Shown here: one piece after another, positions 2,889 to 28,519 of the stretch
Position numbering within the stretch: the first letter of the stretch is position 1
How the letters are laid out: each line of letters begins with the position of its first letter
From: a virus
Virus record (IMG/VR): IMGVR_UViG_3300027749_000062
Span: 32,001 to 96,000 of that record
Length of the DNA stretch: 64,000 nucleotides
Reading direction: 5' to 3' (one strand)
Notes under the pieces: model-generated
Seen by the model: the letters and a program-made list of their open reading frames with translations, nothing else
Databases searched by the model: none
Told to the model about the DNA's origin: nothing
Position numbers and translations under genes: made by a program

Positions 2889-2898
2889 CAATTATCCT

Positions 2899-3393
2899 TT
2901 ATGCAAATTTTGTCAACGAAGCCAACACAACAAAAGTTGCACTTCCAGTTTTCTGAATAACATATGTATAACAGTCAATAGAACTTGCATTACCACTTGT
3001 TGGCGCAGAACCGCCTTGCCATTTAGGTGTTACTGAATTACCGTCAATTGTCACGGCACTATTATAATATGCTGTAGAACCTTGAGTAACTAGAAAAGTA
3101 GCAGAAGCAACTTCACCAGTTGCAAGCATAGAGTCCAAACTGTTACCACTTGAAGCTCGAAAATTAAGTGTCCAGTTTCCGGATGCGTTAGTGCTATAAT
3201 ACATTACAGATTGAGTAGCCAAATCATAGTTAACTGTACCTGTAGCAGCAGTCGCAGCAATCGTATCAACTTCAGCAATGCTTGACGTTTTAATAGAAGG
3301 CAGACTTGACGAACCAGTAAAAATAATGGTGTCAGTATTTTGTTGTTCTTGTATTGATGTTCCGTTAAGAACCAATGTGTATCTAGTTGTCAT
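2899..3393 (-). CDS. Tail fibre adaptor/structural protein
   Basis: 164 aa. Beta-rich, ending ...VTPKWQGGSAP...IDCYTYVIQKT...LASLTKFA, typical of phage fibre-associated proteins. RBS present. Confidence 0.65.
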   Translation of the reverse strand: MTTRYTLVLNGTSIQEQQNTDTIIFTGSSSLPSIKTSSIAEVDTIAATAATGTVNYDLATQSVMYYSTNASGNWTLNFRASSGNSLDSMLATGEVASATFLVTQGSTAYYNSAVTIDGNSVTPKWQGGSAPTSGNASSIDCYTYVIQKTGSATFVVLASLTKFA

Positions 3394-3401
3394 ATTTTTC
3401 C

Positions 3402-3824
3402 TTAACTTACTGGCACGTTAATTGTAGAACCTGAGCGATTCAAAATTGGCAATAAACCGTTACCAACAGGTATACTAATTGAGGAACCTGCTCTATTTAG
3501 GACGTATAAAGTAGTAGGTAATGTGCTCCAGCTAGCAGTAGTTCCATTTGTTTTTAAGAAATTATTCGCATAACCTGTTTGCGAAGGTAATGGAGAAAAA
3601 GTAGTCCATGCTGGAGGTGAATCTCCTCCACTGATTAGTACTTGTCCTGAAGTACCATATGCAGTATTACTCGTACCAAATGCAATACCTCCATTGGAAG
3701 TCAAAGTAACTACAGTTACATTATTACCTGTTTGAAATTGCAAAGAGCCGGTACTATCGGCACTTGTTTTAAGTCCTGGTACTCCTGTTATTAATCCTGA
3801 ATCTGCTGATATAATGCTAGACAT
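3402..3824 (-). CDS. Short tail fibre segment protein
   Basis: 140 aa. YGTSGQVLISGG..PAW and NFLKTNGTTASW fibre repeats. N-terminal module shared with neighbouring fibres. Confidence 0.65.
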   Translation of the reverse strand: MSSIISADSGLITGVPGLKTSADSTGSLQFQTGNNVTVVTLTSNGGIAFGTSNTAYGTSGQVLISGGDSPPAWTTFSPLPSQTGYANNFLKTNGTTASWSTLPTTLYVLNRAGSSISIPVGNGLLPILNRSGSTINVPVS

Positions 3825-3832
3825 TTTTTTCC

Positions 3833-4963
3833 TTATGCTGTGTATGTGCCGCTGGAGGTGAACGTGTGGATTGTGTTTCCACCAGAAGATGTTACTGTAC
3901 CGCCAGAACCGCGTTGTGAACCGGAGTAACTGATGATTACGATACCGGAGCCGCCATTGCCACCAATTCTTCCATTACTTCCGGCATTACCACCGCCGCC
4001 GCCGCCACCGCCAAGATTTGTAGTGCCAGCAACTCCATTTGCGCCGTTGTAAACAGCCCCGGCTCCACCACCGCCAGCGCCGCCTGCTCCGTTGGTTCCC
4101 CCGTTGATACCACCACCTCCACCACCACCAGCGTAATATGTGGAAGTACCTGAAATTGAAGAAGCAAGGCCAGCGCCGCCTGCACCAGAATTAGAGGTAC
4201 TAGAACCGCCTACTGCGCCAGCGCCACCACCGCCGCTGCACCCGTTTCCGCCACTGGCAGTTCCACCTGCATTACCTTGCCCTGCTGTGCCAGCGTAACC
4301 ACTGGTAGCGGGGCCACCGCCGCTTCCAGAACCGCCAGCAATTCCGTTACCAGTGCCTCCGCCAATTGCAGTAAGAGAACTAAGAACTGAATTGCCGCCT
4401 GCTGTTGCGGTGTAGGTGCCATCTCCTGTTCCACCAGCGCCAATGGTGACGGCATATGCAGTTCCCGAAGCAAGACTCAAAGAACTGCCCGACAACAACC
4501 CACCAGCCCCGGCTCCGCCACCTGCTGGCCCATAACCGCCCCCGCCGCCAGCCACAACTAAATAGCTAACTGCGTATGTAGTAACAATTGAACCCCAGTA
4601 GGAGCCGTTGTACAGTTCAAATGAAGACGTTGTGGAGTTGTAGCGAATCATGCCAGCCACTGCTGTGGGCTGCTGTGCAGTAGTGCCGATGGGCAATGTC
4701 AATGCACCCGTGCTATTCAAGGTGACGTTCTGGCTCGTGTCGATGGTGACCGCAGTCGTTCCTGCGCTTTTTATTGTTAGTGCCGTAGCTGCTGCTGAAC
4801 CAATAGTATTTACCGTAGCTGTGCCTGCAAAGGTAGTGTTCCGGCTTGCATCTATGGTGACCGCAGTTGTTCCTGCCGTTTGGAATGCAAGGACTCCTGA
4901 GGCATCTGCGGTCTGTATTAAACCACCTGTACCTGTATTGCTGGCGTTGATTGTTGTGGTCAT
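3833..4963 (-). CDS. Gly-rich tail fibre tip/adhesin
   Basis: 376 aa. LPIGTTAQQP..GMIRYN fibre repeat, then a YLVVAGGGG...GSGIVIISY...IHTFTSSG Gly-rich module. Confidence 0.75.
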   Translation of the reverse strand: MTTTINASNTGTGGLIQTADASGVLAFQTAGTTAVTIDASRNTTFAGTATVNTIGSAAATALTIKSAGTTAVTIDTSQNVTLNSTGALTLPIGTTAQQPTAVAGMIRYNSTTSSFELYNGSYWGSIVTTYAVSYLVVAGGGGGYGPAGGGAGAGGLLSGSSLSLASGTAYAVTIGAGGTGDGTYTATAGGNSVLSSLTAIGGGTGNGIAGGSGSGGGPATSGYAGTAGQGNAGGTASGGNGCSGGGGAGAVGGSSTSNSGAGGAGLASSISGTSTYYAGGGGGGGINGGTNGAGGAGGGGAGAVYNGANGVAGTTNLGGGGGGGGNAGSNGRIGGNGGSGIVIISYSGSQRGSGGTVTSSGGNTIHTFTSSGTYTA

Positions 4964-5130
4964 GCTGGTGTATCCGCTGGTTCAGGTGTATTACCTTCAG
5001 CAAGCCATTCTAGGTAGGCTTCAGCAGTAACTAAACAAGATTCCTGCTTGCCATCAGACCATTCACGCCACACAACATTTTCTTGTTGAGTCGTTGGGTC
5101 TTTAACTAATTTCCAAATTGGTGTTGTCAT
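4960..5130 (-). CDS. Small tail fibre assembly chaperone-like protein (56 aa)
   Basis: Below the ORF-track cutoff. MTTPIWKLVKD...YLEWLAEGNTPEPADTPA; ATGA overlaps with both neighbours. The YxxWLAEGNTPEPAD motif is common in small proteins that follow fibre genes. Confidence 0.7.
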   Translation of the reverse strand: MTTPIWKLVKDPTTQQENVVWREWSDGKQESCLVTAEAYLEWLAEGNTPEPADTPA

Positions 5131-6344
5131 AATTCACATCCTGTCGCAATAATTAAACTAGTCGCACTACTGCTTTGTAAAGAAGTTGCATTTCCAATAG
5201 TAAGACCACTTGAACCAGTTACATTTAAGGCAAAAGTTGACAAATTTGTTCCAGTTCCATAAATAGCTACTGTTCCTGCGGCAGAAGTTCCATAATTAGC
5301 TGGTATCACAGCAAAAGTTCCACTAGTCGTTATTCCTGTTGCCGCTACTCTAGGCTGAACAGGATAAGGTGCTGTAAAAATAGCCGCAGTTGATGCATAA
5401 CATTGTCCCGCAAACGGGAAATTGCTACTTGCACCAGAAACAGACCAAGCAGGACAATATCTCTGACATAAAGCCAACTCAGTACCATACGGGCGGTAAT
5501 CAAACGATGTAGCTGTGCTGCCTTTTTCTAGCTGTACGCCTGTGATGTAGAACGTGGCTCCGCTTGTGCCGACTACGCTGGTTGCGCCTGTAGCAGAACG
5601 ATAATCACCAGCCGCCCATGCTCCAGCCGTTCCGCTAAAAGTAGAGCCTACACCCAATCCAAAATTAACATAAACCCCAACCCCATTAGTTGCCCCCGCC
5701 CAAGTTCCAGTAGTATCACCAGCAATTGTTATGCTGATTGTTGTCCATGTATTTGCTGAAGAGATGGTGTATGTAAAAGGATATGACCTATTAAAACTTG
5801 ACCCATTTCCTAAACTTCCACCAAAAGTTCCAGTAAGTGATGAATAAACTCTAAAAGATAATGTAACTGTCTGTGCGTTTGCAGTACCCCAAGCCATATC
5901 TGCAAAATTAAACCCTTCAATTGCTTGAATAAATGTGTAAATGCTTCCAGCAACTATTGAAAATGCCGATTGGGATGTTATTCCAAAATAGTTATTAAAT
6001 CCAACTGGAGGAGTTACCGAGCCAGCATTTTGTTGCCCAACAACTTTACCAGTTGTCGGGTATTGAACAACTTGCCATCTATCTACCGTGTATCCACTAA
6101 TAGTATTCGCCGTTGCCGCCCCCGCATTACGCTGGTCAATCACCATCGCACCATTGATGATGCGGTTCTTGAAGCCAAAGGTGTTTGGCAGGTTTGCGTA
6201 GCCAGCAAAGGTGGCATTTTGCGAAGTATCCAGTGTGAGCGCAGTCGTGCCGTTGTTGGTCTGCAATACCAACGCACCTGTGGTATCAGCAGTAGCAACC
6301 AAACCGGTACTGGATGTTGTTCCTGCAGAAATACTTGATGCCAT
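5127..6344 (-). CDS. Tail fibre with carbohydrate-binding-like domain
   Basis: 405 aa. FKNRIINGAMVIDQRN...DRW, GVQLEKGSTATSFDYRPYGTELALCQRY: a widespread phage fibre family. Confidence 0.8.
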   Translation of the reverse strand: MASSISAGTTSSTGLVATADTTGALVLQTNNGTTALTLDTSQNATFAGYANLPNTFGFKNRIINGAMVIDQRNAGAATANTISGYTVDRWQVVQYPTTGKVVGQQNAGSVTPPVGFNNYFGITSQSAFSIVAGSIYTFIQAIEGFNFADMAWGTANAQTVTLSFRVYSSLTGTFGGSLGNGSSFNRSYPFTYTISSANTWTTISITIAGDTTGTWAGATNGVGVYVNFGLGVGSTFSGTAGAWAAGDYRSATGATSVVGTSGATFYITGVQLEKGSTATSFDYRPYGTELALCQRYCPAWSVSGASSNFPFAGQCYASTAAIFTAPYPVQPRVAATGITTSGTFAVIPANYGTSAAGTVAIYGTGTNLSTFALNVTGSSGLTIGNATSLQSSSATSLIIATGCEL

Positions 6345-6353
6345 TTATTATCC

Positions 6354-6968
6354 TTAAAAAATTAACCAGCGTTGGCCGCTGGTAATTGTAACTGATTGTC
6401 CATTCGCCACAGTCACAGGACCAACTGTCATAGCATTATAACCTGCAGCAATTGTATAACTTGAACTTATCGTTGCTCTATTTAGGTATAAACCATTATT
6501 TGCCGTGACTACAGATGCTTGTAATTCACCGGTAGATGGTTTATATAACAAATTTGTATTGCTGGTATAAACTGTAGTCGCAGAACCAGTTGTTGATGCC
6601 GCAAACAATGGATACTCATAACTAGCAGTCGTTGTATCGTTGCTTAGAGTTGCACCACCAACAGAAGTCCATGCAGGAGATGCACCACCATATCCCTCAA
6701 ATTGGCTTGTCGTTGTATTGTAACGCAACATACCAGTAGCTGGACTTGCTGGTTGTTGTCCTGTTGTACCTTTACTTAATGTAAGAGCTCCAGTGGATGT
6801 AAAAGTGCCATTTTGGTTTGCATCAATCAAAAAGGCTTGTGTGCCGTTAGTGGATATAGCTAATTGATTTGTGTTTGGATAGTAAACACCCGTAGTTGTG
6901 CCAGCAGTACCACCTTGTATTGCTGGTGTCGTTGCGCTATTGTCTGTGCCGTTAAGAAATAATGGCAT
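6354..6968 (-). CDS. Tail fibre connector protein
   Basis: 204 aa. GTTGQQP..GMLRYNTT..FEGY fibre repeat; C-terminal module N..TI...GP.TV..G..V....GQRW.I. Confidence 0.7.
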   Translation of the reverse strand: MPLFLNGTDNSATTPAIQGGTAGTTTGVYYPNTNQLAISTNGTQAFLIDANQNGTFTSTGALTLSKGTTGQQPASPATGMLRYNTTTSQFEGYGGASPAWTSVGGATLSNDTTTASYEYPLFAASTTGSATTVYTSNTNLLYKPSTGELQASVVTANNGLYLNRATISSSYTIAAGYNAMTVGPVTVANGQSVTITSGQRWLIF

Positions 6969-7002
6969 AGTTTACTCCACAATTTAGAATGGTTGTTTTC
7001 AT

Positions 7003-7347
7003 TTATTCCAGAACAACCCAAGAAGTAGTTGATTCATTCCATTCGTATATGCCGTCAGTAGGCATTGGTGTTGGTGCATCCCACAGGCAAGTTTCATCAT
7101 TCAATGTCCAAGATGGAAATGGTTGTGGTGGAATAAAAGCGTCACGGGTTCTATCGTAAGTAAAACCAACACCAGCGTAATTTTTACGCAATGGAGTGCC
7201 GCCGTTAGCGTGAACACCGCCTCGGGTATTATAACTAGTCTGGATCCATTCACCAGGACTTGTGTCTACGAATGTTTGAAAAAACTCAGGTTCAGCCACA
7301 ATGACTTGAACTACTACGCCGTTTGATACTTTTGCAAAATGTGCCAT
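7003..7347 (-). CDS. Conserved fibre-associated small protein (putative chaperone)
   Basis: 114 aa. MAHFAK...WIQTSYNT...LRKNYAG.G.TYD..RDAFIPPQPFPSW: a family usually found beside Gly-rich fibre genes. Confidence 0.7.
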   Translation of the reverse strand: MAHFAKVSNGVVVQVIVAEPEFFQTFVDTSPGEWIQTSYNTRGGVHANGGTPLRKNYAGVGFTYDRTRDAFIPPQPFPSWTLNDETCLWDAPTPMPTDGIYEWNESTTSWVVLE

Positions 7348-7365
7348 ATTAACTCCTTAACTTTT

Positions 7366-8913
7366 TTATGCTGTGTATGTACCGCTTGATGTAAATGTAT
7401 GTATAGTGTTTCCACCAGAAGATGTTACTGTACCACCTGTGCCTTTTTGCGAACCGGAGTAACTGATGATGACGATGCCGGAACCACCATTAGTGCCCGT
7501 ATTTGGGGCGTTCCATGTACAGCCCCCACCACCACCAGAATTTACAGTCGCGGCATTGGGATATGCGCCGCCGCCACCTGCACCGCCGCTGCCGTTACCA
7601 CCAGCGCCGGCACCACCACCACCGCCAGCGTAAGTAACACTGGAACCGGATATGCTACTTGCTGTTCCAGCACCACCCGTTCCACCAGAAGAACCAGAAC
7701 CAGAATTTCCGGCCGCTGAAGCGCCTCCGCCGCCACCACACGCATTGCCACCACCTCCACCGCCACCGGCATTTCCTTGCCCAGTAGTGCCAGAGCCGCC
7801 GCCATTACCACCGCGGCCGCCACCACCAGAACCACCAGAAACGCCAGTACCGGAACTACCGCCACCACCACCAAGAGCAGTTACAAGACTACCAATACTT
7901 GAATTACCGCCGGTATCACCAACACCGGTTGCCGCTGGTTGAGCGGATCCACCTGCACCAACAGTCACTGTGTATGCGGTTCCAGTAAGAACACTGGTAG
8001 ACGAAGTTAAAAGGCCTCCAGCCCCTCCGCCACCTGAACCTCCGCTGCCACCGCCACCGCCAGCAACTACCAAATAACTGACTGTGTAAAAACCTAAATT
8101 AGCTAATGTGGTGAGAAATGTTGGTGTAAGAGCCGTGCTGAACACAAACCATGAAGTGGATGCAGAACGATATATGTAAGATATTGATTGTCCCGGCACT
8201 AACCCAGGAATTGTGTTATTCAGCGTCTGTCCTGTATTAGCATTAAGTGTAAGTGTAGTAATTTCTTTTGTGCTACTGAAGCTAACCACCATTCCATCAC
8301 TAGGTGAAGCAGGCATTGTAATGGTTCCGGTAAGCAATGTACCGGCCGGGTTGATTATCAGCGTGTTGTAGGTGCTGAAAGTATATGAGAACCCCGTAGT
8401 CGGGACTAGGTAGTCGTAGTTTTGCACTACGCCTTTACCAGTGGATTTAATTGTGCCCGCGAACGTGGCGTTTTGGCTTGTGTCAATAGTGACCGCTGTG
8501 TTTCCATTAGTAGCAATAGTAACTGGACCACCAGACGAGGCCACAGATACGTTAGATGTGCCGTTAGAAATGGATGTTGTTGACAGAGTAGTCCAAGTAG
8601 GTGATGCACTCGATCCTGCTGAAGTCAGAACTTGTCCGTTTGTTCCAAAAGATGGTGTAGAACCTAAACCTATTGCTTGACTTGAATTAAGTGTGAGCGC
8701 AGTAGTTCCTGCACTTTTTAATGTGAGTGATGTAGCTGCTGCCGAAGTGATAGTGTTTGATGTAATTGAACCATTAAATGTTACATTTTGATTAGAATCG
8801 ATAAGAACTGCATTAGCTGAACTTGTACCAGTTTGTATTTGCAGATTGCCAGATAAATCTGACCTTACTGTAAATGCTGTTGTGAGTAAAGTTCCAGTTG
8901 ATAGTGTGCTCAT
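7366..8913 (-). CDS. Gly-rich tail fibre tip/adhesin
   Basis: 515 aa. FGTNGQVLTSAG repeat and an ITMPASPSDG beta-sandwich. The C-terminal Gly-rich module is paralogous to 3833-4963. Confidence 0.75.
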   Translation of the reverse strand: MSTLSTGTLLTTAFTVRSDLSGNLQIQTGTSSANAVLIDSNQNVTFNGSITSNTITSAAATSLTLKSAGTTALTLNSSQAIGLGSTPSFGTNGQVLTSAGSSASPTWTTLSTTSISNGTSNVSVASSGGPVTIATNGNTAVTIDTSQNATFAGTIKSTGKGVVQNYDYLVPTTGFSYTFSTYNTLIINPAGTLLTGTITMPASPSDGMVVSFSSTKEITTLTLNANTGQTLNNTIPGLVPGQSISYIYRSASTSWFVFSTALTPTFLTTLANLGFYTVSYLVVAGGGGGSGGSGGGGAGGLLTSSTSVLTGTAYTVTVGAGGSAQPAATGVGDTGGNSSIGSLVTALGGGGGSSGTGVSGGSGGGGRGGNGGGSGTTGQGNAGGGGGGGNACGGGGGASAAGNSGSGSSGGTGGAGTASSISGSSVTYAGGGGGAGAGGNGSGGAGGGGAYPNAATVNSGGGGGCTWNAPNTGTNGGSGIVIISYSGSQKGTGGTVTSSGGNTIHTFTSSGTYTA

Positions 8914-19337: not shown

Positions 19338-19559
19338 TTAACCTTTTATTAGTAATTGTTGCAACAACGATTTAATCTCGGACATGTCCGATTTGATGCA
19401 ATCTATTTCTGATTTTACTTTATTTATTTCTTCTTTTTGAATCTTTACCAACCTAAGTTTATTATAATACTCATTTTTTTCTGTACTATCTGTAGGCAAA
19501 AGAGCTCTACTGTTTATATCACGAACAAAATTTGTTCCAGTAACTCTTACTAGTTCCAT
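19338..19559 (-). CDS. Conserved small T4-like protein (C-terminal coiled coil)
   Basis: 73 aa. V.G..FVRD..SRALL...EIKSLLQQL, typically found after the VrlC-like gene. Confidence 0.65.
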   Translation of the reverse strand: MELVRVTGTNFVRDINSRALLPTDSTEKNEYYNKLRLVKIQKEEINKVKSEIDCIKSDMSEIKSLLQQLLIKG

Positions 19560-19560
19560 T

Positions 19561-21753
19561 TTAGATTCCTGTTCCTGCTGGCAATGCTAATGCACGAATA
19601 TCAGTTAAGAAAGGAACATTTGTATTATCACTTGTCGCTAAAACAATTTTGATTGCAAATTGAATAAATGATGTATACTTTTGACCTGTTGTTGCACTTA
19701 CATAACTGATGCTGTTGTTTGCTTGGTTACTTGCATAAATGCCAGGCGCAGCTTCATATTCATACAAATCGGTTCTAGATGTGGAAAATGTATTTGGATT
19801 CTGCATAGTTGTCATCAACTGCCAGTTACCTGATTCAAACGGAGCTGTATCTAATGAATTCAAAATTTTGTAATAAACATAGATAGCTGTACCTAATGGT
19901 TTATATGCAGTATAAAATACTCTTAAATCACCTGAATCATTTCCTGGTGCAAGTACAACTTTCTTAGTGAAATATTTTGCATATGAATTACCACCTTTTG
20001 ATGATGTTTCACCTGTTACTGTAACAACAGCATTTGCATTTCCTCCGCGAGTAGCTGGATTGGAAATTGTAATTGTTGGTGATGTTAGATAACCAGAACC
20101 TGGTGTAATTGCATATACAGAAGTAATTGCACCGTTGGCATTTGCAGTAAATCCTAATGTTGCAACATTTGAACCAACATCTGGACTTGAAATTGATATT
20201 GTTGTTGCATTGACGTTATAACCATAACCTGGATTGGTAATAGATATAACATTATTACCAATTCCCATGTTATTGATGAGATAAGAAATCGCATACATCG
20301 TAACACCATCGTCCGAAATGATTGGGGTCACGTTAGGATCACTTGTGGCCATTGTTGCATACAATGAGAAGGAATTATTTGAATACTTTAATAGGGTTCT
20401 TTCTCCATTTCCATCATTTAAGTAAATGTCATCAGGTAAAGGACTTCCTAATCTTCCAGGAGTAATTGAATTTGTACCTGTTGGTACATTTCCAGTCTTT
20501 AATGTTGCTGTATATGAATAATTGATACTTGTTCCTGTTGGTGCAAGGTCAGTTGTGGTGATATTCATTGCATCATAAACTCTACTTGGAGAATAATTAC
20601 CAAATATCTGTGAGGCACTATTCGCATCTATCTTATTCAAAATATCTTGGTTGCCCATTTTTCTAAATGGCAAACCTTTGGGTACAGTAAACTGAACCGA
20701 AGCTGTGGTTGTAGAGAACACACATTTATCAATAACAAACATCAAATCTTTTGTTTGGTCTGCTGACCATGTTATACCATTTTGAGATTCAAACAAAGCA
20801 CCAACATAAGGAGCTGCACCAATTTTTGTTGGATTACTTGGATTTGCATCTGATACATTAGCTTTTGCAGTAGAGGGTACAGCTATTTGATTTTGTTGAC
20901 CATAATAAAGTACATAATCTTTAGAAGCTGAATTAACAATAAAAGCGTACAATACACCAGATTGAATATAAACCGGTGCATCAAAAACAAATTCTGTATA
21001 AGCACTTGGATCCAAATAATGTGGTGTGCTGGATGTGTTTACTTGGTTTGGAAGTAACATAACCGTAGAGTAATCTAATGTAGAACCATCAGGATAACCA
21101 TTAATTGTAGGTACAACACTAATTTTTACTGGAATATTTGTTGAAGGTTTTGAATAGAAAAATAATTTGATTGAGTATAAGAAAATGCCATTGGGGTAAT
21201 TATCTTTTGAAACAATAAATGTTTGTGCAACCGGATCACTATTACCTGTTTGTACGGTAGTAGAACGAGTCGTTGTAACTGAACTAATTAATTGATTGGC
21301 TCTTTGATTTACTTGAGTAAATACAGATTTAGAAGAATCTATTGAAGGTGCAAAATCTAATTTTTGTGAGGATGTTGAAAGACCTGAGGCGACAAATGTT
21401 CCTTCGGCAAATGTTGTTGCGGTTGTTAAATCTGTGGCCACAGTTCTATTATCTACGCGAAATACTCTACTTCCGGTTTGAAATGTAGTGGAAGGAACAT
21501 TGAAAATACCAACAAAATTACCAGCTTCATCTGTCGAAGGTTTAGCTAATGAGTTTCCAGTTTGCACCGCCGAGCTAATTTTAGTTAAATTGCCTGAAAT
21601 GGAATAACGAGAACTAATATCTCCACCCATTTCTGTATTTGTACCCAACGATAAATTTACAGGAGTACTAAGTGTAACAAGTTTTGTTACCGGATCATAT
21701 GCTGTAATGGTTGCAGAATAAGTGTAAAGACTTGAGCGATAAAGTGTTGTCAT
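19561..21753 (-). CDS. VrlC/DUF4815-like baseplate structural protein, C-terminal half
   Basis: 730 aa. DPVAQTF, GIFLYSIKLFF, GALFESQNG.TWSADQ..DLMF, AKYFTKKVVL and F.QFAIKIVL...VP...DIRALA motifs. Confidence 0.8.
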   Translation of the reverse strand: MTTLYRSSLYTYSATITAYDPVTKLVTLSTPVNLSLGTNTEMGGDISSRYSISGNLTKISSAVQTGNSLAKPSTDEAGNFVGIFNVPSTTFQTGSRVFRVDNRTVATDLTTATTFAEGTFVASGLSTSSQKLDFAPSIDSSKSVFTQVNQRANQLISSVTTTRSTTVQTGNSDPVAQTFIVSKDNYPNGIFLYSIKLFFYSKPSTNIPVKISVVPTINGYPDGSTLDYSTVMLLPNQVNTSSTPHYLDPSAYTEFVFDAPVYIQSGVLYAFIVNSASKDYVLYYGQQNQIAVPSTAKANVSDANPSNPTKIGAAPYVGALFESQNGITWSADQTKDLMFVIDKCVFSTTTASVQFTVPKGLPFRKMGNQDILNKIDANSASQIFGNYSPSRVYDAMNITTTDLAPTGTSINYSYTATLKTGNVPTGTNSITPGRLGSPLPDDIYLNDGNGERTLLKYSNNSFSLYATMATSDPNVTPIISDDGVTMYAISYLINNMGIGNNVISITNPGYGYNVNATTISISSPDVGSNVATLGFTANANGAITSVYAITPGSGYLTSPTITISNPATRGGNANAVVTVTGETSSKGGNSYAKYFTKKVVLAPGNDSGDLRVFYTAYKPLGTAIYVYYKILNSLDTAPFESGNWQLMTTMQNPNTFSTSRTDLYEYEAAPGIYASNQANNSISYVSATTGQKYTSFIQFAIKIVLATSDNTNVPFLTDIRALALPAGTGI

Positions 21754-21772
21754 TTATTTTTCCAAAATTTTA

Positions 21773-24700
21773 TTAATTATTTATTGTCTTGGGAAATGAT
21801 TTATCACCAAAAACTCTACTAATTGTATATAAGAAAGCAAATAGTGCCCACATTCCGTAACCTGTTACTATACCAGCTTGCTTGTCTTTTCTTGGTAATA
21901 AGTTGACTATTTTACTAATTGGTTTACCAATATTCATAATAATTTTACCAGCGAGATTATCTTTATCTCTCTTACCCATTATATATGCCATATGTTCAGC
22001 CCAAGGTGTTGCAATTCTATGAGCCCATTTTGTTGCAAGTTTTGCTTGGACTTCAGAACGCTTCTTATCATCTTTAATCCAGAACATACATTGTGGACCT
22101 TCACCGGACATCCAATCAACAACAACTGTAGCCCAACGAATATAACCATGATAGGCCGCAGGGTCATTCAATTTTAACAATTCACCAAATTCTTGGTCCG
22201 CCTTGTAAATTGATTCATCCATTAGTCCCAATTGGTATAGTTTGGTACAGATAATTTTACCTCCACCACCGCCACCTCCAGAAGGTTTTGGTGGAGGTGG
22301 AACATATGTTGCAGATACATCGAGACTGTAAACATATTTTGATGTAATGTTAATTGTTGAACCAACATAGTAACTAGAAGTATTTGAAGCAGTAGCTGGA
22401 TCCAATCTTAATTGAGTTGCACCAACAAACCACTCTGCGCCAGCTGGCATTCTAACCGAAGTTCCTGCATTAGTATATGTAATCGGTGGATTAATTGTAG
22501 TATACACTATCGTGTTTGATGCATTCTTAATTGTTGCACCAAAAGCTGATGTTGTTGTACCTGAACTTGTTGCGGTCCATCCAAGTTTTACCGTTGTTGG
22601 TGCATTTGATACTGTATAAGTAAAAGTTGTTGTTGATGCTGGTGTGTTCGTTAAAGAAGTTCCAATGCTTGTACCATTCGCATAAACTGTTGCTGAACCT
22701 GATGCACCAACCTCTATCGTGTAAATTCCGTTAGCTGTGAGTGTGACGGGTGAGGTAAAATTGAAATTGGTACTATTAGTTCCATCACCCCAAACTCCAT
22801 AGTTATTCAATAGTGATGAATAACCTTGTACTATTGGTGTTCCAAATATTTGTGTTGTTGTATTACCATTTAATGTATTTGACCAACCACCACCAACACC
22901 ACTAATTGAACCACTTTGGCTTATGTTTATTACTGAATTAGAGGCTACTGTTCCTGATGCAGAAGAAGACAAGTAATTTCCACTAGAGTCAAATGTTGCA
23001 TTCCTTAAAGTTGTAGATCCTAATAAATTAGGAACACCAAGAATATCTGAAACATATAAACGAACTTTTGTCGTATCTGTATAATAATAAACAGTTGTTA
23101 CACGAGCAATTGGATAGAACACACTGGCAATATAAAAACCAATAATATCATCATTATTAAATGTGCCAGAAACACCTGTCAATTCAATTGTATTTGGAGC
23201 AGTCATGTATCGTGATACATCTACACCATCAAAGAATGTCGATACATTTGAATTGACCAACAAACCAGATGCACGAATAATAACTTGTTGCGGTCTAATG
23301 TAAGGCAATACTGTAATATTAGTCAAGTATCCATTATTAATTCCAAATGTGGAAGAAGTAGGATTATATGCACCTGAAGTAACATTTTGAATTTGACTTG
23401 CATATGTTTGCGTTGTTGTGCTTACAGTAGTTGTCCTAGATGTACTAGTAGTGGATACGCTTGAGCTAGAACTACTACTTGATGATAATGTTCCTGGAAT
23501 AGTTTGATAATCACCTGAATTTAACAAGTTAACACCAGTTGTGGCTTGATATATTTGAAAATTAGGATTAGTAACTAAAATCGCTGGTGCTTGATTGTTA
23601 TCTACCCAATTGTCCATTGGTGGGTTCATTTGTAATAACCCCTGTTGGACTGAAACATTGAATGGATTTACAGAAACTGTACTACTTGCAAGTGGTTGAA
23701 CAGCAACATTTTCTGTTGTGTATGGTAAAGTAAACAGATTTGTTTGAGCACCATTGATGCTATTAATTCTATAACTATTTGTATTTGCTATCGTTCCTAA
23801 ACTCGCAAGCACAACAGGATTTTGGAGTTGAAAATTATCAACCAATTGCAATGCAGTTAGTTGATTTTTACGAACATTGATGTTTGCAGCATAGTCTGGA
23901 TTTTGTGTGTCTGCTGTTCCAAATGATGAAAAATCATCAACCAATATACCATTCTTAAAACGATTTAAACCATTAGCATCAGGAATTTGTAAAGAACTAG
24001 CTTTTTGTTCCAAAATACTTAATGATGTATAATATTCTAAATTATTAACACGGGTTTCTAAATCTGTAATATCTTCTTTAGCCCAACGCTTGTGAATAAT
24101 TTTATTGATAGACAAGTTTGATGGAACACCAGGTGTACCCTCACCAGGAACAAAAGCTGTATATGGGTCGTGAAATAAATTTGCAATTATCATAGAACCA
24201 GATGGTTCATTTGGCAATAATGGATTAACAGAAGGTGTACCTTGAATTATATTAAAACTCTTATCTTTTGTTAATACTAATTTGTCGTTTCTACCCAAAT
24301 AGTATTGATAGAAACCTGTAAAGTTTGATAAATTATTGGGTATCAACATACCAATATCATTCGTAGAAGTTTGTGTACCTGAATATTCCCAAACATATGC
24401 AGTCTGACCATTAACTCGGCAAGGCCTAAAATCAATACAATCTCTTAATGCATATTGTACACCATCTTTAGCTGTGTATGAACCAATTTGTGCATAAGCT
24501 TCTGCTGAACTCGATACACCACCATAAGTTGAGCCTGATGTATTATATGATTGGATACTGAAATAACCATCACCAGAAGATGCTTGTGTGTGAGAATAGT
24601 AATCTACAGCAACAAGAATATTTCCTGAAGGAATCGGCGCACCTGGAATCAATGAAACCGATGCATGGTCATAGAAACTATCTCTTTGGCCATTGTCTAA

Positions 24701-27085
24701 TGTGAAATAAGAAGTAATATCTGTATAATTTGACAATGAACCTGATGGATTTGTACCAGCAACACCTGAATCAAATACACCTACAATTCTTTTAACATCA
24801 TTTACATACAATGACATTTTTCCAGTTGCTGTAATGTCTGTTTTACTAATTGTAATTTGACCTTTTGTTAAATCCTGATAAGAATTTGTTCCAGAAACTG
24901 ATGCAAGTGTACCAACAGTTACGGTGTTACCCGTAACTAAAGATTTTGATTTTAAAACATAACTTGAAGAATCACCACTGCTTGCTTGGACTTGTGCAAT
25001 AATTGTAACATTTTTATTTGTACCAACACCAGAACCAACTGTAAATGTTGCTTGAGTTTTATCAGAAGAAATTGAAATTGTATTACCTGATGTAGTAAAA
25101 TCTAAAACATTACCTGTTGAATTATCAACAACCATGAATAATTGCGGCGCAGATGAACTATCTAAAGTACCTGTACCTTCAAATCTTAATGGATTACTTG
25201 CATTGCCTGATGTTGCTTGTAGTGTTAATGTATTACCAGTAAATGTTTTTGAACGATATACTCTTTGTGTAAAATAAGAAGTGGTGGTTAATTGTGCAAC
25301 ATATGGATAACCAATTTGAAATATTAATTCGGGTGAAACTTGTGAATATAATATTGTATCTGAATTTGCAAGACCATTAACTTTACCACTTGCTGCATTT
25401 ATATTCACATTTGCGGTTAGCGCATAAGAACCAGAACCGGCAGTTTTAACAATAGATTCAACATCATAATTTTCATATATCAATGAGAAAGTTGATGTTG
25501 CTGTTGGTGTTACTGTGAATGGAGAATCCACATTTACTACTTTGGAAGCACCATTGTAACTTGTAATATTTCTCAAATCAATAATACCGCCAGTATTCAT
25601 ACTTACTGTTACATTGAAGTAAGAATTTGAAGTGGCTGAGAATGAACCGTTTGTATCATTAATTGTGAAGGTTGTTGCAGTGCCTGATGTAACATTTCCG
25701 GATAATGTGTTTGCAGCAAAATCTGAAATATATGCATTGAAAATATATGTTTTAGTATTTGTTCCAGTACCTGAATTATATTTCAAGTTACGCATGAAAG
25801 CAGAACCAATCAATGTTGATGAATAAGTTGTAGTATTTGTTGAAACAATGTTAGCTGCAGGAACACAATGCAAATCAACTTGAGGCAATGTAGAAATATC
25901 AAATACACCATTAGAGGTGTCTACAACAAAATAATTTCCGTAATCCACATAAACTGGATTATTACTGATATTTGCAACAGACTGAGCTCTTGTGTTTGTT
26001 AATTTAATATCAGATTGGTTCTCTACTCGATAACCATGAACATATGCAACACCTTTACTAATACTTAAATCATAGGTTGTATTTGATGTAGAATTTGCAG
26101 ATGGTGTTAGTTTGAAATCATTAACAATATAATCACCATTTGTTTCATAATCACGTTTTGCAAAGTAATCATCGATGGTTGAGTAAACAGTGCCATCAAC
26201 TTGTTTTAAAATATTACCATTTTCAATCCGAACCAATTCAATAAAATTATCATCATTACCTAAAGTCAAAGGCAACGTAATCAATGTTAGTGTGATAACA
26301 TATCTGTCTGCACCCGGTGCTTGATAGTTGGATGCACCAATAGCAGGATCCAACAAAGAAGAATCATTGATGTAATCGTAAATTGTTTCTGTAATTTGTA
26401 AACCAATGCGGTATGATGGTAAATTATCATACTTGTCTAAAATGATTGTCTGTGGATTAACAGTAACAAAGTTACCTATTGAATATTGGATGCCAGTACT
26501 ATTTGAAATGGAATATCCATTAACAACATAAAATACACCATTCGCAATAGAAGCAACCGATGAAAGACCAGTTGAAGATATGGTTGTTGATACTGAATTA
26601 ACTACTGTAGTGGTCGATGTAGCGACAGAAGCATAGTATGTTGAACCTGTGCTTGTTGAAATAACACTACCATCGGTAAATTGAGCACCTGAGAGATATG
26701 TTACAATCAATGTTGGTGGGTCACCAACGGTGGAACCACTAGTTGTAGTTTCAGCCGTAGCAATAACTCTAGCAAGAATTGTTCCTGTTGAATCTTGAAT
26801 AATTTGGCCTGCGAAATTCCCAGCAGTTACTGTAATACCATTGTAAGTATTGTTCAGTTTAATATAATAACATTGTTGATTAAGTGTGACTTGTCCACCC
26901 GAAACTGGTGTATTTGTAGAATATATCGCAGAAGCAAATTCAGAAATTTGATTCTGTAAAATTGTTTGAGACTGTGTTAATTCACGAGCTTGAACCGCAG
27001 AACCTGGCTTAAACAGTATGCGGTGAAAGTTTTTTGATGGGTCAAAATCGTCAAAATATGGACCAACATTGAAATTTAAAGACAT
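21773..27085 (-). CDS. VrlC/DUF4815-like baseplate structural protein, N-terminal part, with C-terminal GGGG-KIICT domain
   Basis: 1770 aa. PYFDDFD..KNFHRILFKPG.AVQARELTQ.Q.ILQNQI, APGADR, RVNNLEYYTSLS.LE and RFKNGILVDDF motifs. Confidence 0.85.
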   Translation of the reverse strand: MSLNFNVGPYFDDFDPSKNFHRILFKPGSAVQARELTQSQTILQNQISEFASAIYSTNTPVSGGQVTLNQQCYYIKLNNTYNGITVTAGNFAGQIIQDSTGTILARVIATAETTTSGSTVGDPPTLIVTYLSGAQFTDGSVISTSTGSTYYASVATSTTTVVNSVSTTISSTGLSSVASIANGVFYVVNGYSISNSTGIQYSIGNFVTVNPQTIILDKYDNLPSYRIGLQITETIYDYINDSSLLDPAIGASNYQAPGADRYVITLTLITLPLTLGNDDNFIELVRIENGNILKQVDGTVYSTIDDYFAKRDYETNGDYIVNDFKLTPSANSTSNTTYDLSISKGVAYVHGYRVENQSDIKLTNTRAQSVANISNNPVYVDYGNYFVVDTSNGVFDISTLPQVDLHCVPAANIVSTNTTTYSSTLIGSAFMRNLKYNSGTGTNTKTYIFNAYISDFAANTLSGNVTSGTATTFTINDTNGSFSATSNSYFNVTVSMNTGGIIDLRNITSYNGASKVVNVDSPFTVTPTATSTFSLIYENYDVESIVKTAGSGSYALTANVNINAASGKVNGLANSDTILYSQVSPELIFQIGYPYVAQLTTTSYFTQRVYRSKTFTGNTLTLQATSGNASNPLRFEGTGTLDSSSAPQLFMVVDNSTGNVLDFTTSGNTISISSDKTQATFTVGSGVGTNKNVTIIAQVQASSGDSSSYVLKSKSLVTGNTVTVGTLASVSGTNSYQDLTKGQITISKTDITATGKMSLYVNDVKRIVGVFDSGVAGTNPSGSLSNYTDITSYFTLDNGQRDSFYDHASVSLIPGAPIPSGNILVAVDYYSHTQASSGDGYFSIQSYNTSGSTYGGVSSSAEAYAQIGSYTAKDGVQYALRDCIDFRPCRVNGQTAYVWEYSGTQTSTNDIGMLIPNNLSNFTGFYQYYLGRNDKLVLTKDKSFNIIQGTPSVNPLLPNEPSGSMIIANLFHDPYTAFVPGEGTPGVPSNLSINKIIHKRWAKEDITDLETRVNNLEYYTSLSILEQKASSLQIPDANGLNRFKNGILVDDFSSFGTADTQNPDYAANINVRKNQLTALQLVDNFQLQNPVVLASLGTIANTNSYRINSINGAQTNLFTLPYTTENVAVQPLASSTVSVNPFNVSVQQGLLQMNPPMDNWVDNNQAPAILVTNPNFQIYQATTGVNLLNSGDYQTIPGTLSSSSSSSSSVSTTSTSRTTTVSTTTQTYASQIQNVTSGAYNPTSSTFGINNGYLTNITVLPYIRPQQVIIRASGLLVNSNVSTFFDGVDVSRYMTAPNTIELTGVSGTFNNDDIIGFYIASVFYPIARVTTVYYYTDTTKVRLYVSDILGVPNLLGSTTLRNATFDSSGNYLSSSASGTVASNSVINISQSGSISGVGGGWSNTLNGNTTTQIFGTPIVQGYSSLLNNYGVWGDGTNSTNFNFTSPVTLTANGIYTIEVGASGSATVYANGTSIGTSLTNTPASTTTFTYTVSNAPTTVKLGWTATSSGTTTSAFGATIKNASNTIVYTTINPPITYTNAGTSVRMPAGAEWFVGATQLRLDPATASNTSSYYVGSTINITSKYVYSLDVSATYVPPPPKPSGGGGGGGKIICTKLYQLGLMDESIYKADQEFGELLKLNDPAAYHGYIRWATVVVDWMSGEGPQCMFWIKDDKKRSEVQAKLATKWAHRIATPWAEHMAYIMGKRDKDNLAGKIIMNIGKPISKIVNLLPRKDKQAGIVTGYGMWALFAFLYTISRVFGDKSFPKTINN

Positions 27086-27094
27086 TTTTTTCCT

Positions 27095-28519
27095 TTAGTA
27101 TCCTAGTACAAATTTAAATTGCTCGATGCCATCAACGCTTCTTTGAACACCAACACGATTCTCAATATATGTTATATATCCTGAAAATGGAATGAGTGAA
27201 GGTGAAGTTACAGAGAAAACCACCCTCGATGCACCTGAAGATAAACCAATAATTGATTGGCCAACTGTATATGTTCCATTTATATTTATCAACTGTAATA
27301 TATTCGTTGATGTGTTGAAATTTAAGACTGTTCCGTAGTAAATAACATTTCCATTATTATCGAATTGTTGTACAATTTCATCGGCCGTGTAGACATTTCC
27401 TGCACCAGCTGAAACTAGAAATTGGGTTGAAGTGTTATATATTGCACCATTTGCGAGTGCTGGACCAGAGGAACCATATACTTGTGGATTAATAAGAAGT
27501 CCAACTTGGCGATAATTTACACCGGTTGTAGGCAAAACACCATTTTCAGAACCATTGAATTCAACTGAATACATTACATGATTGCAACCCAACTCAGATA
27601 TTGGATCGTATGCATGGCCGCCGACTGGTGAAATAGGAGCTACGGCTGTTGCACCAGAACCTAATGAAGAAATATAACTTAGATTCGCTGAGGTGTATGC
27701 CTTGATTGATACATTTGCATATGTATAATTGTTTCCTGCAAAACCTGTTTTGACAACAATATCATTAATTACACCATTGGTTATCTGTGAACTTGTTATA
27801 TTTGCAACGGTTCCTGTACCATCACCTGTTACGGTAACCACAATATATGTGTTAACTGCATCATATCCTGATCCTCCGTTTGTTACATTTATTACCTCAA
27901 TGTCTCCGCAACCTGCGTTAGTCAGATATGGTTGAGGTGTGTTTGCACCAACAGGGATAGGCATCCAATCAGTATCCAAGAAACTTTTCTTGAGACCTGC
28001 ATCAATTGTATACATGTATTTCCATTTATACAGGTCATTACCTTGATAGATATTATTTGTTCCGTATGAACCTGGTTGAAAATATGGCTCAGAAGTTGAC
28101 AGTCCGCCATTATTATTCGCAAGACATTTGAAAACTTGGTCGTAACGGTTCTTTACATAAAAATTATAAAGTGGAAATCCATTGGCATCTTTTGCATTCA
28201 TGTTTACTGAATCGGAATATGCAAAGAAATTGGTGTTATTTGCCCAATTAATCCTTTGAATAACAGGTGAAATGTTACTGGAGTTAATTAGTTTTGCTCC
28301 AAACATATTTTTAAACACTCTTTTCAGATATGTCTGGTCTTCTGTCGGTTGTGTTGGTGTTTCACTTGAATTCACTATTGGCCATGAATCCTCTTGGCCA
28401 ATAAAAGCATATATGGAATTAATGGTAGCACCATTGAGTTTGACTGTCGGATTGTAATAATCCGTCTCAACTCTGATTACTTTTGCTTGATTTGTGAGTA
28501 TGTTTAGATTTGATGCCAT
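27095..28519 (-). CDS. gp8: Baseplate wedge protein
   Basis: 474 aa. VFKCL.NN, YKWKYMYTI, WMPIP, GGH..DPI.EL, YRQVGL..NP, YIENR..R...E..K.VL motifs. Confidence 0.85.
   Translation of the reverse strand: MASNLNILTNQAKVIRVETDYYNPTVKLNGATINSIYAFIGQEDSWPIVNSSETPTQPTEDQTYLKRVFKNMFGAKLINSSNISPVIQRINWANNTNFFAYSDSVNMNAKDANGFPLYNFYVKNRYDQVFKCLANNNGGLSTSEPYFQPGSYGTNNIYQGNDLYKWKYMYTIDAGLKKSFLDTDWMPIPVGANTPQPYLTNAGCGDIEVINVTNGGSGYDAVNTYIVVTVTGDGTGTVANITSSQITNGVINDIVVKTGFAGNNYTYANVSIKAYTSANLSYISSLGSGATAVAPISPVGGHAYDPISELGCNHVMYSVEFNGSENGVLPTTGVNYRQVGLLINPQVYGSSGPALANGAIYNTSTQFLVSAGAGNVYTADEIVQQFDNNGNVIYYGTVLNFNTSTNILQLININGTYTVGQSIIGLSSGASRVVFSVTSPSLIPFSGYITYIENRVGVQRSVDGIEQFKFVLGY

Follow-up and report, generated by a model that had tools for sequence, protein, structure and literature searches.

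The gene for the baseplate protein VrlC in a 64,000-nucleotide stretch of viral DNA (positions 32,001 to 96,000 of IMG/VR record IMGVR_UViG_3300027749_000062, hereafter the window) has a break in the loop at the tip of a long β-hairpin of two strands, which projects from a small β-domain. The break holds a cassette made up of a Pro/Gly tether, a 161-amino-acid (aa) domain with an invariant Cys in a KIICTKL motif (the KIICT domain), a stop codon and a restart signal (GGAAAAATAA-ATG-ACA-ACA), behind which the rest of VrlC continues as a second open reading frame (ORF). The contents of the hairpin-tip site are exchangeable among related phages, and the KIICT domain is a constrained, phage-restricted and strictly C-terminal unit. 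The reading that we favour, with somewhat better than even confidence, is that the cassette serves as an exchangeable C-terminal cap, placed on a permissive hairpin at the surface of the protein; the two halves of VrlC would pair non-covalently and the cap would bind a membrane or envelope. We found no published description of the KIICT module or of a split VrlC in the literature searched.

The break in VrlC

Pelagiphages and cyanophages have VrlC in their baseplates where T4 has gp7 (PMC7029224). In the window, which derives from a 104-kb IMG/VR virus contig (~62% complete, ~35% G+C), the gene is encoded, as an initial annotation made from the sequence alone had described, by two minus-strand ORFs of 1770 and 730 aa that lie in different frames, 19 nucleotides (nt) apart (Table 1). 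Family profiles and collinearity with a single chain assign the pair to VrlC/DUF4815: ORF1 matches Pfam DUF4815 (PF16075; E 1.8e-57) and positions 5-1273 of phrog_358 (E 2e-228), and ORF2 matches positions 1308-1612 of the latter (E 1.2e-85). The nearest cultured relative of the gene is that of Pelagibacter phage HTVC008M, which has the same gene order and encodes VrlC as one 2001-aa chain; ORF1 aligns with its residues 1-1363 and ORF2 (from aa 78) with residue 1379 onward. An assembly error is ruled out as the cause of the split, because the split recurs on many independent contigs and the ratio of nonsynonymous to synonymous substitution rates (dN/dS) is 0.02-0.18.

Queried with residues 1-120 of ORF2, a search confined to long proteins returned 48 single-chain VrlC relatives of 1969-3019 aa, 7 of them 69-85% identical to the query. 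Those of 2311-2349 aa read without interruption across the break point (...INITSKYVYKFNTSATYVPPPQLPSGGAGGLTLKNGYRASLYNYTATITAYD...). For example, P0245 (P numbers denote metagenome proteins, L numbers loci on viral contigs) has ...FYVGSTINITSKYVYKFNTSATYV-PPPQLPSGGAGGLTLKNG-YRASLYNYTATITAYD..., while at the same place the window has ...YYVGSTINITSKYVYSLDVSATYV, the tether PPPPKPSGGGGGGG, the 161-aa domain, the stop codon, 19 nt and M-T-T, followed by LYRSSLYTYSATITAYD.... In other unsplit relatives the turn is shorter, as in ...TSKYVYIYNNKYYDKIQTFKSVITAY... and ...IAVTSTNGTSVETYNANVISY.... We modelled 499 homologous residues of the unsplit locus L087 with AlphaFold2 (48-row alignment; mean predicted local distance difference test score, pLDDT, 74.6). 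In this model ATINITSKYVYQFNTSATY (residues 339-357) and GLTLSNGYRASLYTYSATITAYD (369-391) form the two strands of one long hairpin, with a pLDDT of 67-83 in the arms and ~56 in the tip loop PPPQLPSGGAG.

The unsplit relatives and the hairpin of L087 thus agree with the initial annotation that the chain breaks in the middle of a domain, and the motifs that it quoted were found in place, ASNTSSYYVGSTINITS being aa 1566-1582 (22340-22390 of the window). Its further claim, that the broken domain repeats one found earlier in part 1, holds at the profile level, where profiles of the copies, drawn from 45 relatives, reach an hhalign probability of 97% against each other (E 1.2e-10), with a sole gap of 12 residues exactly at the extended hairpin of the second copy; the repeat is, however, not significant when tested in this genome alone (z = 1.1). 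Similarly, the Pro/Gly linker is followed by a real, conserved domain, as had been proposed, but much of the linker is also present in the unbroken loop of unsplit relatives.

Exchangeable contents of the site

We surveyed the same site in 36 further VrlC loci from viral contigs (Table 1). The hairpin tip carries KIICT domains of more than one subtype, a divergent RVICT variant, an unrelated module (CCVVAT), Hint domains, whose alternation with KIICT had been raised by the initial annotation, short Trp/Asp-rich tails or an unbroken loop. Every split form retains the hairpin arms of 13-14 residues. Nearly every one also has the restart (T)GGAAAAATAA-ATG-ACA-ACA, which stands alike behind KIICT, CCVVAT, Hint, RVICT and short-tail ends; in L100, L101 and L122 it overlaps the stop codon as TAAATG. 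The tails linked to Hint domains end in an amphipathic helix. The module-free split forms end after the Pro/Gly tether with GGWWSWSDWFDNQQGE, GGDFSWSDYQNLNVGS and PPPVYQWSDSGDG (L090, L094, L099; L006:3683-7351), and these short Trp/Asp-rich tails look like a small motif of their own. As a possible relative of KIICT, CCVVAT reached an hhalign probability of only 2% and was handled as a separate family; its end matched nothing in NCBIfam at E up to 0.1.

Table 1. Features of the split VrlC locus in the window, and contents of the same site in other VrlC loci
Feature	Position in window, or loci	Strand	Basis or remarks
ORF1, VrlC part 1	21773..27085	minus	1770 aa and TAA stop; DUF4815 and phrog_358 matches
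Conserved VrlC body, aa 1-1295	23201..27085	minus	BLASTP; collinear with HTVC008M VrlC residues 1-1363
Intact earlier copy of the β-domain, aa ~473-533	25487..25669	minus	short hairpin turn (SMNTGGIIDLRN); hhalign
Lineage-specific insert in VrlC β-sandwich, aa 1296-1540	22466..23200	minus	predicted all-β; absent from HTVC008M
Broken β-domain, first half	22301..22465	minus	alignment to unsplit relatives
Hairpin strand 1 (..TINITSKYVYSLDVSATYV)	22301-22366	minus	unsplit alignment; AlphaFold2 strand 339-357 in L087
Pro/Gly tether PPPPKPSGGGGGGG	22259..22300	minus	counterpart of tip loop PPPQLPSGGAGG of unsplit relatives
KIICT domain, aa 1610-1770	21776..22258	minus	161 aa, six predicted helices, undescribed family
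Invariant Cys1613 of KIICTKL motif	22247..22249	minus	Cys in 359/359 aligned members
Terminal hydrophobic helix IVTGYGMWALFAFLYTISRVF and short basic tail	21809..21871	minus	fold model, hydropathy
TAA stop and 19-nt spacer with restart signal GGAAAAATAA directly before ATG	21754..21775	minus	
ORF2, VrlC part 2	19561..21753	minus	730 aa; phrog_358 positions 1308-1612
Hairpin strand 2 (LYRSSLYTYSATITAY), second half of broken β-domain	21697..21744	minus	unsplit alignment, AlphaFold2
DPVAQTF, second hot site, ORF2 aa 173-179	21217..21237	minus	unbroken in window
Baseplate-wedge gene (phrog_438)	27095-28519	minus	adjoins ORF1, upstream
73-aa virion structural protein (phrog_473)	19338-19559	minus	E 2.5e-15; directly after VrlC
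KIICT like that of the window, at hairpin tip	L089, L098, L111, L009, L011		
KIICT of another subtype, at hairpin tip	L118, L120		only 36-39% identical to the window's
Divergent RVICT variant without hydrophobic end, at hairpin tip	L097, L102, L119		
Unrelated ~130-aa CCVVAT module with its own hydrophobic helix, at hairpin tip	L091-L093, L100, L101, L103, L109, L115, L117, L122		
Hint domain without C-terminal Asn, then helical tail, at hairpin tip	L096, L116, L105, L107		Pfam Hint N-terminal block
15-20-aa Trp/Asp-rich tail alone (..WWSWSDWF..), at hairpin tip	L090, L094, L099		
Unbroken loop at hairpin tip	L084-L088, L106, L114		

These forms bear directly on the suggestion of the initial annotation that the two halves might be ligated through the N-terminal Thr of part 2. 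In such a scheme a thioester at the Cys would be attacked by that Thr, so that the halves would be joined and KIICT excised by a new kind of trans-splicing; the invariant Cys and the conserved M-T-T start of part 2 would suit it. However, part 2 contains nothing like a C-intein, M-T-T shows the same conservation where a module-free short tail or a CCVVAT module precedes it, and the three loci with a 15-20-aa tail and no module (L090, L094, L099) are split and cannot ligate. The conservation of M-T-T needs no chemistry, because M-T-T belongs to the restart signal common to all module types. For these reasons ligation is not required and is highly improbable.

The module-free split forms also explain why we favour non-covalent reassembly. 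Because such forms exist, and because the restart would provide coupled translation of two VrlC chains, the halves may rebuild the β-domain by pairing the retained 13-14-residue hairpin strands, with no need for splicing or ligation. The gene would have to be split because the module would require a free C-terminus, its attachment point being an internal surface loop.

We built a tree from the first 1250 residues of VrlC (39 rows) by a quick maximum-likelihood search with midpoint rooting; it has a long outgroup branch. It requires at least 14 changes of state at the site over the 39 rows, and the clade of the window is nested with unsplit forms with 99% support in the Shimodaira-Hasegawa-like approximate likelihood ratio test. 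The KIICT domain of the window shares 58% identity with that of a Gly-rich 500-aa protein and 53% with that of a gp5-like hub protein, as against only 36-39% with the domains that L118 and L120 carry at this VrlC site. When L098 and L111 are compared with the window, the synonymous divergence of the domain is about one half of the value for its flanks. The similarity across hosts and the lower synonymous divergence indicate, on sequence relationships, that the cassette moves independently of the VrlC gene. At the DNA level the 'scar' loop of L087 is not cleanly derivable from a split form.

Such turnover could also be that of a purely selfish mobile gene, fused in frame for its translation and of no use to the phage. 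Presence/absence polymorphism among close relatives, a cassette synonymous divergence below that of the flanks, and co-occurrence with Hint domains, another class of mobile element, would all be in keeping with this. We nevertheless think it very unlikely: Pfam and NCBIfam reveal no nuclease or recombinase motif, the module is found only on distal tail proteins and not on replication genes, the preferred targets of inteins and homing endonucleases, its flexible tether and C-terminal position are constant, and it also caps complete proteins in which nothing is split.

The KIICT domain

The initial annotation had described a helical domain of ~160 aa with a hydrophobic end, and the AlphaFold2 model agrees: it has six helices and no strands (pLDDT 83; predicted template-modelling score 0.78), and the last helix has a best 19-residue Kyte-Doolittle mean (KD19) of 1.45. 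Cys1613 is the fourth residue of the conserved KIICTKL block and lies inside the first helix. Pfam, NCBIfam and PHROGs yielded no family for the domain; the single library row, YibX (E 0.044), was judged a chance match. Foldseek against the PDB gave nothing significant (best E 0.44), a search of the ESM Atlas gave no usable match, and the matches in BFVD were members of the family itself. The NEL E3-ligase domains of SlrP and SspH1 (VIA-align wide; Z 5.9 and 5.8) were rejected as relatives, since these scores lie under the meaningful level for helical bundles and the catalytic Cys does not align with Cys18.

The family is large. A word-indexed search recovered 137 proteins of similar length, together with at least 470 longer proteins that contain the domain, and a profile search of 1.84 billion cluster representatives (clusters counted at 50% identity) recovered 1870 at E up to 0.001, nearly all from phages, and 1040 at E up to 1e-10. 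By comparison, a scan of prokaryotes (one genome each, ~185,000 species) gave a single match, on a 6-kb contig of a metagenome-assembled genome, and tblastn against 50,697 phage records found the domain only in gp028 of Synechococcus phage SynMITS9220M01; the junction flanks had no tblastn match in cultured phages.

In all 377 members the domain is C-terminal, with a median of 3 residues behind it. Among the 359 members whose N-terminal part is covered, the KIICTKL Cys, the ADQ Asp and a Gly-Tyr pair never vary; a Trp is present in 355 of these and the AEHMAY His in only 223. The hydrophobic last helix is found in 348 of the 377, the other 29 ending before it. At least 4 Gly occur within the 12 residues upstream of the domain in 73% of members, preceded in many by a run of Pro; 13% have Asn-Cys repeats upstream, and 34% have an extra Cys 1-2 residues before IIC. 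Between the window and three close relatives, dN/dS is 0.02-0.065 for the KIICT domain and 0.08-0.18 for the rest of VrlC, so that the domain is under stronger purifying selection than its host protein. In P0355, P0366, P0360, P0331, P0340 and P0388 a transmembrane-like hydrophobic stretch replaces the poly-Gly tether directly before KIICT, which would place the domain between two membrane helices.

To judge from its invariant Cys, Asp and Tyr, the domain would have a specific chemical or ligand-binding role. The initial annotation had proposed a non-Hint autoprocessing or sorting module, and a Cys-dependent activity could let KIICT cut itself off part 1 at or near the poly-Gly/KIIC junction after assembly, leaving a mature baseplate with only the two VrlC chains, comparable to what happens with Hint and tail-spike chaperone domains. 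Besides the invariant residues, the Gly-rich upstream sequence agrees with this, as do the Hint domains that occupy the same position in relatives, sometimes directly before KIICT; a conserved C-terminal module on varied fibre, spike and baseplate proteins is moreover the pattern of a removable assembly domain. On the other side, the predicted fold is all-helical with the Cys within its first helix, and no His or Asn is conserved, so that Hint-type chemistry is unsupported even though the Cys and the non-Hint nature of the domain stand as proposed. In addition, unsplit relatives with 70-85% identity at the junction assemble without KIICT, which means that VrlC needs no such chaperone, and cleavage would leave a tail-anchored fragment of no obvious purpose that is yet under strong purifying selection. 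We regard self-processing as unlikely and keep it in view because a cap does not account for the Cys and Asp, and because a Hint domain in front would release the domain. The more specific version, an all-helical, Cys-dependent autoprocessing or adduct-forming module that is interchangeable with Hint and acts at the poly-Gly/KIIC bond of phage tail proteins, we hold just as tentatively.

Second site and other host proteins

A second hot site lies at the DPxAQTF motif in part 2. KIICT ends the upstream ORF just before DP(V/I/L)(A/G)QTF in L006-L008, L028, L030 and L048, and a CCVVAT module does so at this site in L113. In L014 and L053 the break lies further upstream, and L006 and L028 have an additional break with a short ..YQWSD.. 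tail. Two metagenome proteins that are otherwise continuous carry tandem Hint domains before this motif, four in P0276 (aa 1826-2461, before DPLAQTF) and three in P0281, with the pattern C-F...TxxH...VHN followed by Lys. Because there is no +1 nucleophile, these domains should cleave rather than splice. For P0276, Pfam assigns them to the pre-toxin HINT family (E 1.3e-23). P0130, a VrlC fragment with a KIICT domain 78% identical to that of the window, has a Hint domain between tether and KIICT (...ATYVPPPPSNSGGPGC, then CFDPEAKV...VVVHN, K and KIICTKLY), an arrangement that recurs in P0326, P0327, P0337, P0394 and L068. The Hint domains of relatives show C1, TxxH and, in one type, HN.

Every KIICT host that could be identified is a distal-tail protein, that is VrlC, a gp5-like hub protein or a Gly_rich_2 protein. 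The hub protein consists of an OB domain (phrog_694, E 1e-31), a short β-helix, PPPPPSRGGG and KIICT; one such gene (L021:7335-8486) sits between gp27-like and gp25/gp6-like genes. KIICT caps both complete and split Gly_rich_2 adhesin domains, and L034 has two Gly-rich domains, each broken by KIICT. The apparently stand-alone 169-aa members P0011 and P0016 start inside the Pro/Gly tether and are probably gp5-like fusions with mis-called starts (compare L021). Members such as P0032, P0038, P0072, P0087, others and L073 are ~290-300 aa long, with a virion-like N-terminal motif and an Asn-Cys repeat core before KIICT. In L113:8041-8490, L034:8476-8901 and L049:8443-8859 a Cys-rich ORF of ~140 aa (MG(I/M)SLEEFLKDREACAHC..GN.E.C) directly follows KIICT or CCVVAT and precedes the rest of the split gene; the L113 copy, the only one tested, has no PHROG match.

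Unrelated C-terminal modules behind one conserved tether at the same site, pre-toxin HINT matches and a gp5-like needle protein as one host could also mean that KIICT is a cargo or effector. Carried on distal tail parts, it would be swapped, like the cassettes of polymorphic toxins (Rhs, CdiA, MuF), through recombination at the 3' end of a gene whose body stays constant. A preceding Hint domain would release it, and its target at infection would be the envelope or inner membrane of the host. However, KIICT resembles no toxin family, no immunity-like gene lies behind it (in the window the remainder of VrlC comes next), neither VrlC nor the fibres, being peripheral, enter the cell, and our searches placed the family in phage and metagenome records, with the one match on a short contig of a metagenome-assembled genome, and in no bacterial conflict locus. 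An effector role is improbable, more so than self-processing.

Discussion

We return to the reading of KIICT as a membrane- or envelope-binding cap, which a flexible tether would attach to the tip of an arm projecting from the baseplate and which would come into play once the distal tail reaches the envelope of the host. Such a cap would probably be an anchor in a membrane or envelope, because the alternative ends share a putative affinity for membranes, in the form of a hydrophobic helix (KIICT, CCVVAT), an amphipathic helix (Hint-linked tails) or Trp-rich short tails, and because the hosts are all parts of the distal tail. A role as a tail anchor during assembly in the infected cell is a less likely second option.

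Several points weigh against such a cap. The hydrophobic helix is missing from 8% of the family, so that membrane tethering, as the initial annotation had it, does not hold as the core function of the fold, and the last helix of the window is itself only moderately hydrophobic (KD19 1.45). A lone invariant Cys together with an Asp is more typical of catalysis than of membrane binding. A Hint domain directly before KIICT would be expected to cut it off the structural part, and this order suits a module that acts transiently or separately no less well than one that stays on the virion as a permanent cap. Finally, on the short midpoint-rooted tree the changes of state may be gains or losses of the cassette.

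For the architecture of the gene, the closest published parallel is nrdA of Aeromonas phage Aeh1, which is split by mobE and whose fragments assemble through junction-derived tails (Crona et al. 2010, PMC3045599). There an essential gene of a T4-like phage likewise lies in two ORFs, and function is restored as their products assemble non-covalently, with no RNA or protein splicing. In Aeh1, however, the insert is a free-standing HNH endonuclease gene, whereas KIICT is translated as the C-terminal domain of the upstream VrlC half, lacks any nuclease motif and belongs to a set of modules that replace one another at the site. For exchangeable ends with an optional Hint domain, the closest parallel is polymorphic toxins, in which Hint just before the toxin domain is a releasing peptidase and 3' cassettes are replaced (Zhang et al. 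2012, PMC3482391). Both have a constant N-terminal body, a conserved junction, an optional Hint domain and replaceable C-terminal cassettes. In contrast to toxins, the VrlC modules match no toxin family and have no immunity gene behind them; their cassette lies inside a structural gene, the remainder of which restarts downstream, in the baseplate of a lytic marine myovirus.

KIICT resembles the Hint superfamily in following a Gly-rich junction and in having an invariant Cys near its start, and true Hint domains occupy the same two VrlC sites. Unlike Hint, which is all-β, it is predicted to be all-α and has neither the TxxH nor the HN block; its Cys is the fourth residue rather than the first, no His or Asn is invariant, and no Hint match covers the domain in Pfam or NCBIfam at E up to 0.1. 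A split intein would have a C-intein segment of ~35 aa ahead of the downstream extein and a +1 Cys, Ser or Thr; ORF2 instead begins with M-T-T and from residue 4 (Leu) continues with the hairpin strand of unsplit relatives.

Signals of the GlyGly-CTERM type consist of a hydrophobic helix and basic residues at the extreme C-terminus after Gly-rich sequence. KIICT proteins also end in a hydrophobic helix and basic residues after a Gly-rich stretch, as do CTERM sorting signals and tail anchors, but here the helix follows a folded helical domain of ~140 aa, the unit being 161 aa rather than a short tripartite signal of <40 aa, and no NCBIfam CTERM model, of the GlyGly-CTERM, CFI-box-CTERM or similar kind, matches it at E up to 0.1. 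KIICT thus lacks the defining features of Hint domains, split inteins, CTERM sorting signals and toxin cassettes. Peptidase_S74 is a C-terminal chaperone of tail spikes and fibres that is released by Ser-Lys autoproteolysis. Like KIICT, it is a conserved module at the C-terminus of fibre and spike proteins of many kinds; by contrast, VrlC relatives fold without KIICT, whose cleavage is only putative. Pfam gives no Peptidase_S74 match (PF13884-type models) for KIICT at E up to 0.1 and no such fold is among the Foldseek or VIA matches, a remote similarity being possible.

One surface hairpin of VrlC thus serves as a cassette site where C-terminal modules, Hint domains and short tails are swapped and a broken chain is tolerated. 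With its intact, scarred, split and Hint-cut forms it offers a series, made by nature, in which to ask how an essential structural gene can withstand being fragmented. VrlC belongs to the baseplates of pelagiphages and cyanophages, which are among the most abundant marine viruses. KIICT itself is a large unannotated family on the virion parts that touch the host, and its function could explain a step in adsorption, penetration or tail assembly of marine myoviruses. If the Cys were catalytic, KIICT would be a new self-processing fold with possible use in protein engineering, and phages would have at least two unrelated protein-level ways to handle modules in structural loops.

Neighbouring features

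Homologues of the lineage-specific insert upstream of the broken β-domain occur in P0137 and P0146, for which precomputed Pfam matches to PA14 or GLEYA are recorded; its all-β prediction comes from the AlphaFold2 model of the homologous stretch of L087. The window also encodes three intact Gly_rich_2 (PF21722) proteins on the minus strand (3-2891, 3833-4963 and 7366-8913), in a stretch (3-8913) of 47-50% G+C as compared with ~35% elsewhere. None of the three bears a KIICT domain, of which the contig has a single copy. Along the minus strand the wedge gene is followed by ORF1, the 19-nt spacer, ORF2, the gene for the 73-aa virion protein and the tail-fibre genes; the small ORF behind VrlC has a 72-aa counterpart in HTVC008M.

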